A stretch of 64,000 bases of DNA from Dictyostelium discoideum (lineage: Eukaryota), in NCBI GenBank assembly GCA_000004695.1, contig CM000151.3, forward strand, positions 1,952,001-2,016,000, written 5' to 3'. Each line of letters starts with the position of its first letter. Position 1 is the first letter of the stretch. Positions 1,369-63,500 of the stretch are shown here, piece after piece. Below the pieces are notes generated by a model, which worked only from the letters and a program-made list of their open reading frames with translations, did no database searches and was not told the DNA's origin. The translations under genes and the position numbers were made by a program.

Positions 1369-1771
1369 AATTAGTTAATATTTTATTAATTTATAATAAT
1401 TATAATAAAAAAAGTTAAAAAAAAAAGTTACATACAATTGAAAAATTTTAGTATATTTTCTAGTTTGAATACCATAACCACCATCAGACATACGTGTATC
1501 ACCAGCAATAACACAATAATCTTTACCAGCAACTGCCAAAACTGTACTATAATTTTTTATATTTTAAAGGGTGAAAAAAAGATAAATAAAGTAATTAGTA
1601 ATTCTAATTCTCTATTTTAAAATAATAATAATAACCATATATCAGGATTAAAGTAGATTCTTTTTATTAATTTACTTACCCTCCATTATCTACATATGCC
1701 TCAAATCTTCCATGACTGATTGGTTGTTGTTTATCTTTTTCTGGTAATGCACTTAATTTTAAAGTTTCCAT
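612..1771 (-). CDS. psmB1: 20S proteasome subunit beta type-1 (PSMB1 orthologue), 4 exons: join(1680..1771, 1436..1546, 899..1217, 612..800) on the minus strand; 236 aa
   Basis: Manual splicing of minus-strand ORFs gives METLKLSALPEKDKQQPISHGRFEAYVDNGG / TVLAVAGKDYCVIAGDTRMSDGGYGIQTRKYTKIFQL / TKKCVLATSGMQADTIALQKRL...FFPYYTFNLVAGVDEQGEGWIWTYDAVGSHERVKYSSQGSGNQLVIPLLDNQ / VAKFNQQIVEGNKDV...AGERDIYTGDFADIVVVDKNGVHWEKFELKLD*. It is collinear with human PSMB1 ([31 protein letters not shown]...; [34 protein letters not shown]...PLLDNQVGFKN...ERDVYTGDAL). Donors are gtaagt/gtatgt and the reading phase is consistent across all junctions. Confidence 0.85.
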
Positions 1772-57457: not shown

Positions 57458-58203
57458 TTTATAATTTATGTTTAATTATGGCACATATTTCATTTACATC
57501 ATGTTTTTTCAAATATGTTCAAATTGATTTCAATTTCTTTGGATCAATCTTTTGGAGACAAATTTTAGGTTTAATGTTAATTTTAATCAATTTATGGAGT
57601 TCCTTATCAACATTTGAAGTTTTGGGTGAATTTGGTTGGTTCTATGGTGATTTCTTCATTGAAGATATTCCATCCAATCTTTATTATACAGGTATCTATA
57701 GATTTTTAAATAATCCAGATTCTGTAACTGGTTTCGCTGGTTTCTATGGTCTCAGTTTAATTGCCGGTAGTTTCCCATTATTTGCCTTGTCAATATTCTC
57801 ACAAGTTGCCAATTTCCTCTTTATCAAATTCGTTGAGAAACCACATATGAAGAGACTCTATGGAAGTAAAGTACGTTCTCAAAGTGGTATTTCCAAAGGT
57901 ATTCAAGAGATTGTCAATGAATTAACTGAAACTTCACCACCAATTCAAAAATTAGTTACAAAAACTCGTAATCTTACTGAACGTGTTGAAAGAAGAGTTT
58001 CTGATCGTATTAATTCCTTTGTTGATGAACTTCAAAAACATGGTATTCCATTATCAACTGAACAATTTGAAATTTTAAAAACTTTAAAAGAGAAATATAA
58101 TAATAATAATAATACTTCACCAAGTGATAGTGATAATAATAATAGTAATAATAATAATAATAACACTAATAGTAATAATAATAAAAAATCAAAGAAAATA
58201 TGA
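55612..58203 (+). CDS. Phosphatidylethanolamine N-methyltransferase, Cho2/Pem1 type (two PEMT-like membrane domains), 5 exons: join(55612..56121, 56222..56410, 56509..56822, 56897..57346, 57456..58203)
   Basis: All four introns begin gtaagt or gtatgt and end (a/t)nAG, and the phase was verified at each junction. The product contains [64 protein letters not shown] (first PEMT-like SAM-binding membrane domain, HPxY motif) and EVLGEFGWFYGDFFIEDIPSNLYYTGIYRFLNNPDSVTGFAGFYGLSLIAG (second). This is the arrangement of the yeast CHO2 class. The stop is TGA. Confidence 0.65.
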
Positions 58204-58404
58204 TCAAATAATAAAAAATTAAAATAAAAAAAAAAAAATAAAAAATATATATATCAATAATATCGCAAAAGTATCAATTCCACATTTAAAAATAGTAATA
58301 CAACCATACTATTATCGATAATAAATCATTAATTAAATTAATATTTATTTTTAAAAAAAAAACAAAACAAAACTTTTTATTTATATAAAATTGTATTATT
58401 AAAT

Positions 58405-58647
58405 TTATTTATTTTCAATATTTGGAGAATGACAAATTTGTAAATGGAATTTATAATTTTTAATTTGACATTCTTTTGAACAATAATAAACCTTTTTACA
58501 TTTTGAGCATTTTTTTAAAGGAACATTCTTTTTAAAACAAGTTTGACAAACTTTAATTAATGCACTGGTGCTCGAGCTCGATGATGATGATGATGAAAAA
58601 GAGGAGGAAGATGATTTTGAAGGTGATTGGGGTTGTTGTTGCTGTGG

Positions 58648-58712
<65 letters not shown>

Positions 58713-60223
58713 GAATTGGTGAAGAAGGCGAAGGTGGTGAAGAATAAGGTTGAATTGCAGAATCATTTGATTGTTCTAATGAGAATGAAAAGAAATATAA
58801 TTCAGCCATAATTAATAATGAATAACCTAAACTAAGGGAACCAATGAATAACCATTCACCAGTTGAAAAATTTAAAAAGTATTGAATAACTAAAAATATG
58901 AAACCAGTTAAGAATTGTTTAACAGTTTTCTCAACTAAAAGTTTTGATTTTTGATCGATATCTAAATTCTCTTTATTGTTGATTAATGCTAAATTTGCCT
59001 TATAAATTACCATATGAAATAAGAAATGAATGATATAATTCGATAGGAATTGATAGATTCTTGATGGTATGAAATAGTAAACACCAGTTGCCGAAAGAAT
59101 CAATGGTAATGCTATTTTAAAAGGTGAAGATTGGAATAGAATTAACTTTACAATTGAGAAAGCTGGTGGAATTAACCATTCGATTCTTCTACCTGATAGG
59201 AAATCTAAAAACCAAATTGGACCCCAAAATATTAAATAGATGCTAATATCCAATTCGGAATTATTTAATGATGTGAAAATTAATGCCAAAATCGATGAAT
59301 AAAATGATGGACCTGTTTCTGGTTTCTTGAATACATAAATTCCTAATAACAACAATATGATACTACCAAAGATCATAATATTCAAACTTAATAATCTCCA
59401 AAACATTGGATAACCACTACTTATATCGATCTCTCTCAATGAGTCATAAAACATTACAAAAAACCATAAAGTAACTGTGATTGATGAATTCTTTTTCCTA
59501 ATATTTGGCCATAAGAATACAATACCATAAATTATGAAATTGGTTATGAATGGTAATGCTTTAGTTGGTAATATAAAATATAATAATAAATTTGCACCTC
59601 CAACATACACAAAAAATAATAATTCTAATTGTGATCTAGATAAAAATAAAAAATATAATATAAATAATGATACAAATATCCTTTAAAATAAAAATTATTA
59701 TTAGTATATTGATTGATTGATTAATTGATTGATAGATTGATTGATTAATTGATTGATTGATTGATTTATTGATACAATACCATTCTATATAAATTGTAAA
59801 AAAGTGATCAATTATTAAGGATATAACACAAAATGAAATTGATATTAACCATTCTGAGCCTTTACTATCAACATTATTACCAAGTTGATTAAACATTAAA
59901 CCATCATAACCAAATGAATCATAGAATAATTTAGTATCGGGATTCGATAAGATTTGATAGGCTTTATTAATCTCTTGAAATTTATCGACACCATGCGGAT
60001 TCTTGTCAGGATGATATTTTAATGCTAATACTTTATAGGCTTGTTTAATCTCTGATGCATTATCTGTTTTTTCAATTCCTAATATTTCATATGGTGATTT
60101 TAATTCTCCTTCTTTATTATAACTACTATTACTATTGCTATTACTATTGCTATTGGTACCACTGCTATTATTATTATTATTATTATTATCGCTATCACTA
60201 CTAATATTATTACTATTTGACAT
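58405..60223 (-). CDS. DnaJ (J-domain) protein fused to a polytopic membrane region and a C-terminal MYND-type zinc finger, 2 exons: join(59850..60223, 58405..59680) on the minus strand, with a 169-nt intron
   Basis: Exon 1: MSNSNN...YNKEGELKSPYEILGIEKTDNASEIKQAYKVLALKYHPDKNPHGVDKFQEINKAYQILSNPDTKLFYDSFGYDGLMFNQLGNNVDSKGSE|W (J-domain with the HPD tripeptide). The donor is tg|gttaat, the acceptor ttttaaag|G, and the phase is verified. Exon 2 reads continuously into (W)IFVSLFILYFLFLSRSQLELLFFVYVGGANLLLYFILPTKALPFITNFIIYGIVFLW..., with at least 8 hydrophobic segments, a 21-unit (CAA)n poly-Gln, and CQTCFKKNVPLKKCSKCKKVYYCSKECQIKNYKFHLQIC (the MYND C-x2-C...C-x2-C...YCS-x2-CQ-x3-W/Y-x2-H-x3-C pattern). 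The ORF-track start at 59610 is a GTG inside the exon. Confidence 0.7.
58649..58712. repeat. (TTG)n on the plus strand, equal to (CAA)n on the minus strand, encoding a 21-residue poly-Gln in the DnaJ-MYND gene
   Basis: Direct reading of ttgttgttg... . The plus-strand ORF 58560..58811 (poly-V) is the antisense artefact. Confidence 0.85.
59700..59762. repeat. (GATT)n/(TTGA)n tetranucleotide array inside the intron of the DnaJ-MYND gene
   Basis: Direct reading: ttgattgattgattaattgattgatagattgattgattaattgattgattgattgattt. The minus-strand ORF tail (SINQSINQ...) is its translation and is intronic. Confidence 0.8.
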
Positions 60224-60542
60224 ATTATTCTATTCTAGCATATAAAATAAGAATAAATGATATTTATTTGTTTATTTGTTTATTTCTTTTTTTTTTTTAT
60301 TTGTTGGTTTAAAATTTTTTTTTTTTTTATTTAATTTTTTTTTTCCAAAGCTTTTTAAGGTTTCGAATTTTCAAATAAAAAAAAAAAATATAAAAAATAA
60401 ATAAAAAAAAAAAAAAAATTTTGGAAAAAAAAAAAAAAATAAAAAAAAAAAAAATAAAAAATAAAAAAAAAAATTAAATTAAAGTTATCAGATTGTGATG
60501 GGATTGTGTTATTTTATATGATTAATTAAATAAATAAATAAA
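60224..60542. promoter_or_regulatory. 319-bp divergent promoter region shared by the DnaJ-MYND gene (minus) and vps54 (plus)
   Basis: It is a head-to-head gene pair. The A/T-rich spacer has poly(dT)/(dA) tracts and no ORF. Confidence 0.35.
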
Positions 60543-63500
60543 ATGTCTTTAAATAATTACAACAACAACAACAACAACAACCGCAACAATAACAACAACA
60601 ACAATAATAGTAATAATAATAATAATAGTTTTACGAATGATAACTATGCAATTGATACAGAATGGGAAAATAATAAAAATAATAATAATGTAACATCACC
60701 AATATCATCAAATCATAGTTCACCATCTTCGTCATCATTATCAAGATCATCATCTATGTTATTTGGAGAGAACAATGGCACATCACCATTTATATTTGCT
60801 CAATCATTAACATCGGTTTGTTTAGATCCAATGTCACCATTACCAAATGAATGGTCACCCTCAGATTTACAATTACCACAATCATCATCCTCTTCATCCT
60901 CTTCAGCGACAACAGCGACAACAACAAATGGGAATAATGTTATAACATCACCAACATTACAATTTAATAATAGTAGTAATATTAATATTCAATCATTTAA
61001 TAGCTATATTCAAAAGATTAAGCCATATTATAAGATATTCTTAGAGAATAAACAAAAGGATTTAATACCAACAAACAAAAAAACTAAAGAAGAAATCATC
61101 AGTTTAGAGAATATACCAGCATTCTTTTTTAAAAAGGATATGACAGTTAATGAAATTTTAAACTATGCAAATAATGATCCATCACCAATCATATTTCAAA
61201 AGTTGGAACATTATTACACTATAATCGAGGAGAATATAGTTGGTCATGTTCGTGATAAATCTTTATTATTCTTTTCTGCAATGTCTGATTTAAAACAATT
61301 TAGATCTCAATTAATTAATTTATCGAATCATATTAAAAATTCAGAGTAATATATAATTTATAATTTATAATTTATTTTTTAAGTTTTATATATATATTAA
61401 TTTTTTTTAAAAAAAAAAGAGAAACATTAGGTGAAATTGATGATAATATTATACATGGATTAAATATATCAAAATTATTTCTTCAAAAGAATAGAATAAA
61501 GGATACATTAGAAACATTATCATTGGTATCAGAGGTTACACAAGCACAACCCGCATTACAACTTTTACTATCTAAAGGTGATTATATGGGTGCATTGGAA
61601 TTAATCAATAGAACTCAATCAGCTATCTCTTTAGAATTACATTACATTTCATCATTAAAGAATTTATCACCACAATTATTGGAAATGATTAATTTAATCG
61701 AGAAAATGTCATTACAAGATTTTATTAAATATTCATTAAATGATGAAATCCTATTAAGTTCTTCACCAAATAGTAATAATAATTCACCAATTTTTAATAA
61801 ACTTTCTTTAAAAAATAGAAATAGAAATAAAATTAATAGTAGTAATAATGAAGAAAAAGAAGATAATGAAGATTACTATGATGAAGAAGACGATGATGAT
61901 GATGATGATGATGAAAATATAAACTATGAATCATTAAATGAAAATTTAAATAATTATTTATCACCATTAATAATTGTATTATTAAAAGTTGGTAGAATTC
62001 AAGAAGCATTAGAAGAATTTAGAGATGCATCAAATGAATCATTTAAACAACTTTTTAAGAATACTGTTGCAAATATAACCTATCAATTATTGGATAGTGG
62101 TGGTAGTAGTCATCATAAAACACCCACAAACTCATTCAACTCTCAAAATTTCAATTGGAATGATTGTAAATTAAAACTTTTAAAATTATCTTCTAATGAT
62201 TCATTACCATTATTTAAAGCTGTTGAAAAAGCATTTCGTAGGAAATTCATTGTATTTTCAAAAGTTTTAGAATTAATTATAGATATTGTAAATAATAATA
62301 ATGGAATTAATAATAATGGAATTAATAATAATAATAATAAGAATGGTGATAAATCACCAAATATATTTGGTGAAACAGTTATTAATACTTGTAGTACAGT
62401 TGCATATTCAATAATTGAAACTATGCAAGAAAGAATATCATCATTAATGAAAGTTAGGGGTGAAATTAATGCAAAATTGGCATTACCAGATTTTGTATTA
62501 CTCTATAATCAAATTGAATCATTTTTAAAGTTTACTGAATCTTATTCACTTTCAAAAAGAAAAACACCAATCTTAAGATCATCAATATTGGCTCAATTAA
62601 AAATGTTTTTAGATATTCTTCATCAAAATAGATTATCATCATTAAAATTATTATTAGAAAATGAAGATTGGGTACAAGTTAAAGTAGTTTCTGAATTTCA
62701 AAATATTGTAAATAGTATAGTTCAACAATCAACTGATTATAATAATAAAGATAATAATAAAGATAATAATAATAATAATAATAATAATGAAAATAATAAT
62801 ATATCAGATGAAATTTATATAAATAGTGAACCATTTAAAGTTGTAAATACATCATTAATGTTATTGAAATTTATAAATGACTATTTATGTTGTTGTGAAA
62901 AGTTACCAACGATTATTATAGATTCACTTCCAAAGATTATAGAGATTTTAAATACATTTAATAGTATGACTCATCAATTGGTATTGATGGCAGGTGCTAG
63001 ACAAACTATGAAATTGAAAACTATCACTTCCAAACATTTAGGTTATGCATCACAATCATTAAGTTTTCAAATAAAGTTAATACCATATATAAAGGTGATA
63101 GTATCAAGATCATTAACAGTGAAACAGTTATCATTATTGAATGGATTGGATAAGTTGCTACAAGATTTCGTTTCACATAGACAAGAGATTTTCAATAAAT
63201 TTGTGGTTATCATTAAAGAAAGATCAAGTTATCATCTTAAAGTTTTAGGTTCAATAGATTTAAGAGATGATACTTTACCAATTCCAACACCACCAATAGC
63301 ATCACTCTCAAAAGATATTACAACACTTCATAAATTATTAGCTTCAATTTTACCACCTGATCAATTATTTAAAGTATTTACAAATATTTACTTTATGTTT
63401 AATAGTTTATTCATTGAAAATCTTTCAAAGTTTGATATGTCTCATAAATTATCAAAAAGAAGAATACATAATGATGTTTTACATTTATTAAATTCAATTC

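Follow-up and report, generated by a model that had tools for sequence, protein, structure and literature searches.

How many proteins are encoded at the minus-strand locus 60223..58405, close to the end of a 64,000-nucleotide stretch of Dictyostelium discoideum DNA (contig CM000151.3, positions 1,952,001 to 2,016,000; hereafter the window), and what kind of protein would a single product be? The window has a GC content of 21%, and its coding runs are rich in N and Q, as is typical of Dictyostelium. Two open reading frames (ORFs) are found at the locus, one at 59636..60223 starting with ATG, and one at 58405..59610 starting with GTG, and they form one frame after removal of an intron. An earlier reading of the sequence (the original prediction) joined them into a protein with a J-domain, a polytopic membrane region and a MYND zinc finger. 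This combination is borne out by Pfam matches to DnaJ and zf-MYND and by the same fusion in orthologues. The intron proposed to join the two ORFs has the wrong donor, and the difference encodes a transmembrane helix. Comparison with related sequences shows the locus to be one two-exon minus-strand gene with an intron of 100 nucleotides (nt) and a product of 572 amino acids (aa). The reading preferred here is that this product is a class C J-protein with a duplicated membrane domain and both ends in the cytosol, where the MYND finger would capture a partner beside Hsp70. Taken as a whole, this reading is considered reasonably probable.

The J-Domain

The J-domain comprises residues 44-102 (59918..60094, minus strand), and its HPD motif is found at residues 71-73 (60005..60013). 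It matches positions 2-63 of the 63 positions of the Pfam DnaJ profile (PF00226) with 75.1 bits against a cut-off of 27.8 (E 4.5e-21), and the closest solved J-domains are those of DNAJA2, DNAJC5, DNAJA1, Ydj1, and Sis1. The best matches are to cytosolic DNAJA, DNAJB, and DNAJC5 proteins (E about 1e-16, best 3e-17), while the match to Sec63 is far weaker (E 5e-6). The N-terminus preceding the domain is hydrophilic, N/S-rich and without a signal peptide. Its N-rich part (60124..60217) differs between strains by an indel of eight codons, and a run of S differs by two codons.

The sequence downstream of the J-domain passes directly into the first membrane helix. There is no G/F (glycine/phenylalanine) region, and neither the Cys-rich domain (PF00684) nor the DnaJ C-terminal domain (PF01556) was detected by Pfam at E<=1. 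Since none of these parts was detected, the 572-aa protein is, on its sequence, a class C (type III) J-domain protein.

The MYND Finger and Its Linker

The MYND finger was predicted to be of a textbook kind and to lie at the C-terminus, and this holds: it covers residues 526-564 (58432..58548, minus strand), ends eight residues from the end of the protein, and is matched by PF01753 with 37 bits against a cut-off of 22.7 (E 3.6e-9). The regular-expression match, CQTCFKKNVPLKKCSKCKKVYYCSKECQIKNYKFHLQIC, has the spacing CX2CX9CX2CX5CX3CX7HX3C, in accordance with the C4-C2HC pattern used to define membership (CX2CX7-17CX2CX5CX3CX7HX3C). The closest solved MYND fingers are those of DEAF1, SMYD2, and ZMYND10. 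The MYND fingers of PHD2, ETO, and BS69 touch PxL-type peptides through one Gln and one Trp (Q47 and W51 in PHD2; PMC6916684). The peptide-contacting Gln aligns with Q553, and it is kept in seven of the eight family members that have MYND-region residues. At the position of the ligand-contacting Trp, residue 557, five of eight aligned members have Trp and one has Arg, while this protein has Tyr. Tyr is found here (about 58453..58455 in the window) in D. discoideum, D. citrinum, and D. cf. discoideum, and the substitution could alter the ligand specificity in this clade. The Polysphondylium violaceum gene (L002) has a second intron within the finger (gene positions 1598..1708, between …SSCKM and VYYCSKECQ); D. 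discoideum has none.

The membrane domain is connected to the MYND finger by a disordered P/S/Q-rich linker of about 75 residues, the length of which varies even between strains. The linker contains the poly-Q tract (58645..58713, minus strand), which consists of 22 consecutive Q followed by PQQQQPQ; the original prediction had seen this run but counted 21. Comparison of the region 58632..58713 with the protein from another D. discoideum strain (P0001) displays a pure run of 22 Q in the window and a Q/P-interrupted one in that strain. The proteins of D. citrinum and D. cf. discoideum are 539-542 aa long, mainly due to shorter coding trinucleotide tracts.

A Family Found in Amoebozoa

Among 5.8 billion proteins searched, full-length relatives were found in a second D. 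discoideum strain (P0001, 575 aa), P. violaceum, Tieghemostelium lacteum, Cavenderia fasciculata, and an environmental dictyostelid. All of them contain both DnaJ and zf-MYND. A HMMER profile built on the membrane region matched only 11 of 1.84 billion representative proteins (E<=0.001). All full-length matches start with a J-domain, while two short fragments (P0127 and P0133) contain no Pfam domain. A C-terminal MYND finger is found also in P0126, P0128, and P0129, but not in P0130, P0131, P0132, or P0134. Searching word-indexed collections with the membrane region alone or with a 13-sequence profile gave no members beyond those already found.

The named matches all belong to Amoebozoa, and they cover all three phyla, Evosea, Tubulinea, and Discosea. 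Trinity transcripts from Ceratiomyxa fruticulosa and Cavostelium apophysatum encode the J-domain, the membrane domain and the MYND finger, while those from Nolandella sp. and Stenamoeba stenopodia encode the J-domain and the membrane domain only. As these matches are assembled transcripts, the three parts are carried by one mRNA in the relatives that have them. The same fusion was thus found where the original prediction suggested that it be sought, in other Amoebozoa: in dictyostelids, Ceratiomyxa, and Cavostelium. The J-domain is joined to the membrane domain in nine of the nine full-length family members found, and judged from this distribution of sequences the J-domain and the duplicated membrane domain are the ancestral core, conserved across Amoebozoa. 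The D. discoideum protein has the features of this unnamed amoebozoan family, namely an N-terminal J-domain joined to two six-helix repeats that each open with the motif W-x2-D-x7-E-W.

The entries for the orthologues in GenBank and UniProt are labeled "hypothetical protein" or "J domain-containing protein." No literature was found on the combination of J-domain, membrane domain and MYND finger or on this family, in agreement with the earlier remark that the combination is not one known from characterized families. The exact 549-aa and 572-aa products of the two intron models discussed below are both absent from a collection of 15 billion proteins in which products of other D. discoideum strains are present. 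Three deposited gene models, P0006, P0007 (Heterostelium album PPL_07092), and P0125, seem to be truncated or wrongly spliced, as they lack helix 1, whole stretches of the second repeat or the MYND end when set beside the other dictyostelids. As with the misplaced donor described below, the likely cause is faulty annotation.

A Duplicated Membrane Domain

The membrane domain comprises approximately 330 residues and consists of two tandem homologous six-helix repeats and a short linking helix. Hydropathy analysis gives 12-13 hydrophobic segments between residues 125 and 447; the protein is thus polytopic, as predicted, but with more helices than the "at least 8" transmembrane-like segments first proposed. 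Repeat A covers residues 118-270 with helices 1-6 (59314..59872, minus strand, interrupted by the intron), and repeat B residues 286-452 with helices 8-13 (58768..59268, minus strand), as delimited by the helices of an AlphaFold2 model and by hhalign. Alignment of the family profiles of the two repeats using hhalign gave a probability of 98.5%, an E-value of 1.9e-15 and a score of 94.6 over 139 columns; in the controls, the score fell to 9.9 with reversed columns and reached at most 40.7 in 20 block shuffles. On this profile evidence a six-helix unit has been duplicated in tandem to give the membrane domain.

Both repeats open with the motif W-x2-D-x7-E-W. In repeat B, W304 and E315 are invariant (13/13), and D307 and W316 nearly so (12/13 each). 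The counterpart of this motif in repeat A lies in helix 1, where D139 and E147 are found in all of the 11 sequences compared and W148 in 10 of them; these are the residues lost when the intron is placed as in the original prediction. Further invariant charged or polar residues inside helices are D/N178, N195, D227, and H366. The membrane domain is also the best-conserved part of the protein, with 80% identity between Dictyostelium and Polysphondylium.

AlphaFold2, run on a 13-sequence alignment that includes distant members, gave a model with helices arranged as 6 + 1 + 6 (predicted local distance difference test, pLDDT, 77.9; predicted template modeling score, pTM, 0.55), in which helix 7 (residues 274-287) is short and has low confidence. 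A full-length model made with 10 close orthologues had a pLDDT of 44 and is unusable for the membrane domain. When the membrane regions of 13 members were compared with Pfam at E<=10, no family was found, only scattered single matches, and a PDB sequence-profile search with the domain gave a single match with an E-value of 0.64. Foldseek comparison of the model (pTM 0.55) with the PDB had a best E-value of 1.5 and TM-scores of at most 0.17, and no similarity to solved MFS or MOP/MATE structures was seen. Because the pTM of the model is moderate, this absence of fold matches is suggestive, but not conclusive.

The membrane domain probably has an activity of its own beyond anchoring, for instance the binding or moving of a ligand or client in the bilayer. 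This is proposed because of its strong conservation, its invariant acidic residues within the membrane and its place beside the J-domain in the ancestral core. How far such an activity defines the protein is a matter on which two further readings can be put forward. One takes the membrane domain to be the functional core, such as a transporter, a channel or a lipid-handling protein, with the J-domain and the MYND finger as appendages for regulation or quality control. The tandem 6 + 6 architecture fits this, as do the invariant intrahelical residues (D139/E147, D307/E315, and the four mentioned above), the high conservation of the domain and the ancestral state of J-domain plus membrane domain without MYND. 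The fold searches that could have told for or against it are limited by the pTM of the model, and this reading is regarded as a possible but not the favored one. If it is true, Hsp70 might for example serve to gate, assemble or turn over the very protein that recruits it, and not to act on third-party clients. Somewhat less probable again is the idea that the domain represents an undescribed amoebozoan fold family which is always fused to a J-domain because Hsp70 takes part in its working cycle, with the MYND finger of Evosea as a receptor added later. If so, the protein could be, e.g., an Hsp70-powered device extracting, inserting or moving a client or ligand at the membrane, with MYND serving as receptor for the substrate or an adaptor.

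Splice Site and Topology

The preferred reading, a membrane-embedded J-protein of 12 spans with cytosolic ends, depends on the position of the splice site. Exactly two in-phase donors leave an open frame, GAATG/GTTAAT at 59849 and GAATG/GTATTG at 59780 (the slash marks the exon boundary). The original prediction used the first of these and described the resulting 169-nt intron, 59849..59681, as verified. It keeps the frame and gives a protein of 549 aa, but its donor lies 69 nt too far upstream; that the two ORFs form one frame across an intron was right, the boundaries were not. Using the donor at 59780, the intron is 59681..59780 on the minus strand (100 nt, GT..AG, 17% GC). Exon 1 (59781..60223, 443 nt, ending in phase 2) then starts with the ATG at 60223 and encodes the N/S-rich N-terminus, the J-domain and transmembrane helix 1, while exon 2 (58405..59680) encodes helices 2-13, the P/S/Q-rich linker and the MYND finger, and ends with a TAA stop codon at 58405-58407.

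The 69 nt in dispute (59781..59849, minus strand) encode the 23 residues LISISFCVISLIIDHFFTIYIEW, that is, helix 1 of repeat A with D139, E147, and W148. These residues are present in all full-length dictyostelid orthologues aligned, which span the four genera Dictyostelium, Polysphondylium, Tieghemostelium, and Cavenderia. In the P. violaceum genome the first intron is found at the identical codon and phase (…IYIEW/IFVSL; GAATG/GTAATA…TATAG/GATATTT), while at the site of the upstream donor this species has GAA TGG ATC, without any GT. In a second D. discoideum strain (locus L001) the 69-nt segment is 100% identical to that of the window, while in the 100-nt intron an AATC array is changed by 24 nt and about seven bases are substituted. 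Finally, a 1,917-nt environmental contig (L003) from the Joint Genome Institute (JGI), from a Polysphondylium-like organism, contains an uninterrupted ORF of 540 aa without any intron. Its junction reads …ACAGAATGG/ATATTTGTATCA, with GAATGG just before the boundary, and this matches the corrected splice; the contig would thus seem to represent what a spliced mRNA looks like at this junction.

The upstream donor shares the GAATG/GT context and the phase of the other and leaves the frame open, and with a GC content of 18.8% the 69-nt segment is as AT-rich as the intron, so that base composition cannot separate the two donors; this similarity is probably the reason why the first choice went wrong. 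GT-AG introns normally have a purine in position +3, whereas the upstream donor, GTTAAT, has a T. The conservation of the 23 residues, with a motif matched in repeat B, and the strain and species comparisons make it very improbable that the 169-nt intron is used as the only form or as a substantial isoform.

The array of GATT units that the original prediction had placed in the intron is there. Tandem Repeats Finder describes it as an (ATTG)16.5 microsatellite at 59708..59773, wholly within the true intron. It differs by 24 nt (six units) from that of the strain represented by L001, where the intron is 76 nt long compared to 100 nt in the window.

Loss of helix 1, with its D-x7-EW, changes the parity of the span count, and the topology question arises from this, as the 549-aa model gives an odd number of spans. 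In repeat A of the 13 family sequences, the mean number of K plus R per loop alternates between high and low (1.9, 0.1, 1.7, 0.4, 1.6, 1.25, 1.2), and repeat B shows the same alternation if it is oriented like repeat A. The positive-inside rule thus favors 12 spans with both the N- and the C-terminus on the cytosolic side, parallel repeats, and a 14-residue helix 7 that does not span the membrane.

In several known polytopic J-proteins the J-domain lies in the lumen, and the domain might therefore be thought to work with a BiP-type Hsp70 there, as in Sec63 or the ERdj proteins. The N-terminus is hydrophilic without a signal peptide, however, and the loop before helix 1 has 1.9 K/R per sequence while the next has 0.09, which points to an N-in orientation. 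With 12 spans, a lumenal J-domain would also place the Cys/His zinc finger in the lumen, and the J-domain is, as mentioned above, closer to cytosolic J-domains (E 3e-17) than to that of Sec63 (E 5e-6). A lumenal J-domain is accordingly very unlikely, and the cytosolic orientation is preferred.

The least probable reading, which hardly deserves weight, is that of two genes or mRNAs, a small soluble J-protein ending by read-through into the intron and an independent membrane/MYND protein: the ORF list does show two ORFs and there is an AATAAA 10 nt into the intron, but the first in-frame Met of exon 2 is M224, inside the conserved helix 5, so that this exon has no start of its own, the Ceratiomyxa and Cavostelium transcripts and L003 hold all three parts in one ORF, and the J-domain is joined to the membrane domain in all nine full-length members. 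The original prediction had named a polyadenylation site in the intron as evidence that would separate the two exons; as the hexamer AATAAA occurs about 13 times per kb in the window, the intronic copy is uninformative. The gene has two candidate polyadenylation signals, both AATAAA, at 58344..58381 (minus strand); counted from the first base of the stop codon they lie 26 and 58 nt downstream, and given the frequency of the hexamer they are weak evidence.

Relation to Known J-Proteins and MYND Proteins

The protein resembles several membrane-anchored J-proteins. Human DNAJB12/DNAJB14 and yeast Hlj1, whose J-domain is cytosolic, have a single span. They are like this protein in having an N-terminal J-domain with HPD followed by a membrane anchor, by which cytosolic Hsp70 is presumably brought to a membrane surface, and the J-domain matches that of DNAJB12 with an E-value of 4e-14. 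However, there is no homology outside the J-domain, and the D. discoideum protein differs in its duplicated 12-helix domain, the lack of a G/F region and the C-terminal MYND finger.

In Sec63 (DNAJC23) the J-domain is lumenal and lies between spans, and the protein has a Brl domain in addition. The likeness is that of a polytopic J-protein that places Hsp70 at a membrane. Membership in this family was rejected, as the J-domain is here N-terminal to all helices, there is no Sec63 match in Pfam and the J-domain matches only with the E-value of 5e-6 given above. Drosophila Wurst begins with its membrane helices and has the J-domain at its C-terminal end. The order of domains is thus the reverse of that found here, and the MYND finger is lacking, while both proteins are polytopic class C J-proteins. 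DNAJC22/Wurst is a polytopic J-protein of clathrin-mediated endocytosis (listed in PMC5597180). It was set apart, without a direct profile comparison, on the reversed order and on the membrane profile having matched no metazoan protein.

The likeness to MYND adaptors such as PHD2/EGLN1, ZMYND10, and the SMYD proteins lies in the MYND fold, the spacing of the zinc ligands and the kept peptide-contacting Gln, but these adaptors all lack a J-domain and are not membrane proteins. The MYND finger of PHD2 docks via the PXLE motif of the HSP90 co-chaperone p23 (PMC6916684), and the linking of a protein to a chaperone pathway by a MYND finger is thus not without precedent. While PHD2 reaches the chaperone through its ligand, the D. 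discoideum protein has the chaperone link built into the same chain, and it has Tyr557 instead of Trp.

In its way of working the protein would thus resemble the membrane-anchored J-proteins, but from its sequence it appears to belong to none of the DNAJB12/14-Hlj1, DNAJC22/Wurst, and Sec63 families. It seems rather to represent a new lineage-restricted kind of membrane class C J-protein, whose membrane domain has no detectable relative in Pfam or among solved structures.

Proposed Function

With an N-terminus that lacks a signal peptide and is predicted to be oriented N-in, the J-domain should activate a cytosolic Hsp70, stimulating its ATPase at the surface of the host membrane. By analogy with known fingers, MYND on its flexible tether may capture a partner with a PxL-type proline motif, which would then be placed next to Hsp70. 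The most economical view would be that of a membrane-embedded platform bringing a MYND-bound partner beside Hsp70, and the original suggestion, a scaffold anchored in the membrane that couples Hsp70 to the ligand of a MYND finger, is a reasonable proposal.

Some observations weigh against parts of this reading. The intron model was read from the comparison of genomic sequences, and the upstream donor may serve a minor alternative isoform. The pTM of the membrane model is only 0.55, with low confidence in the linker helix, and the topology was derived from helix counting and the positive-inside rule. A GRR in the loop between helices 8 and 9 of the dictyostelids opposes the proposed orientation, although it is not conserved beyond them. 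D. discoideum has Tyr557 where most MYND fingers have the ligand-contacting Trp. The finger was moreover seen only in Evosea and is absent from the members found in Tubulinea and Discosea, and for this reason it cannot be essential to the core function.

Neighboring Genes

The convergent neighbor on the plus strand, the last ORF of which is found at 57478..58203, ends 201 bp from the stop codon and contains a phospholipid methyltransferase (PEMT) domain (PF04191, E 1.7e-34). The orthologue in L001 is flanked by the same PEMT neighbor, with a product of 747 aa, while the neighbors in P. violaceum differ. On the other side lies a divergent N/S-rich gene (60543..61349, plus strand). No Pfam domain was found in its first 268 aa, and its counterpart in L001, of 987 aa, has no Pfam match. 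The 320 bp between the ATG of the J-protein gene and this neighbor (60224..60542) have a GC content of 10.7% and may be a shared bidirectional promoter.

Significance

Two in-phase GT donors in AT-rich coding DNA mean that an open frame alone does not verify an intron. Here the wrong donor cost the protein a conserved helix and reversed its predicted topology. The family is restricted to one lineage, its gene models were already deposited, and class C J-proteins often show unusual combinations of domains. These proteins set the specificity of Hsp70 by the site at which they act, and each new membrane-bound one points to local Hsp70 work. The family described here pairs an Hsp70-recruiting module with a conserved membrane domain, to which the slime molds and their kin add what would be a receptor for proline motifs. 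As Dictyostelium is genetically tractable, the function of such a protein is directly testable.

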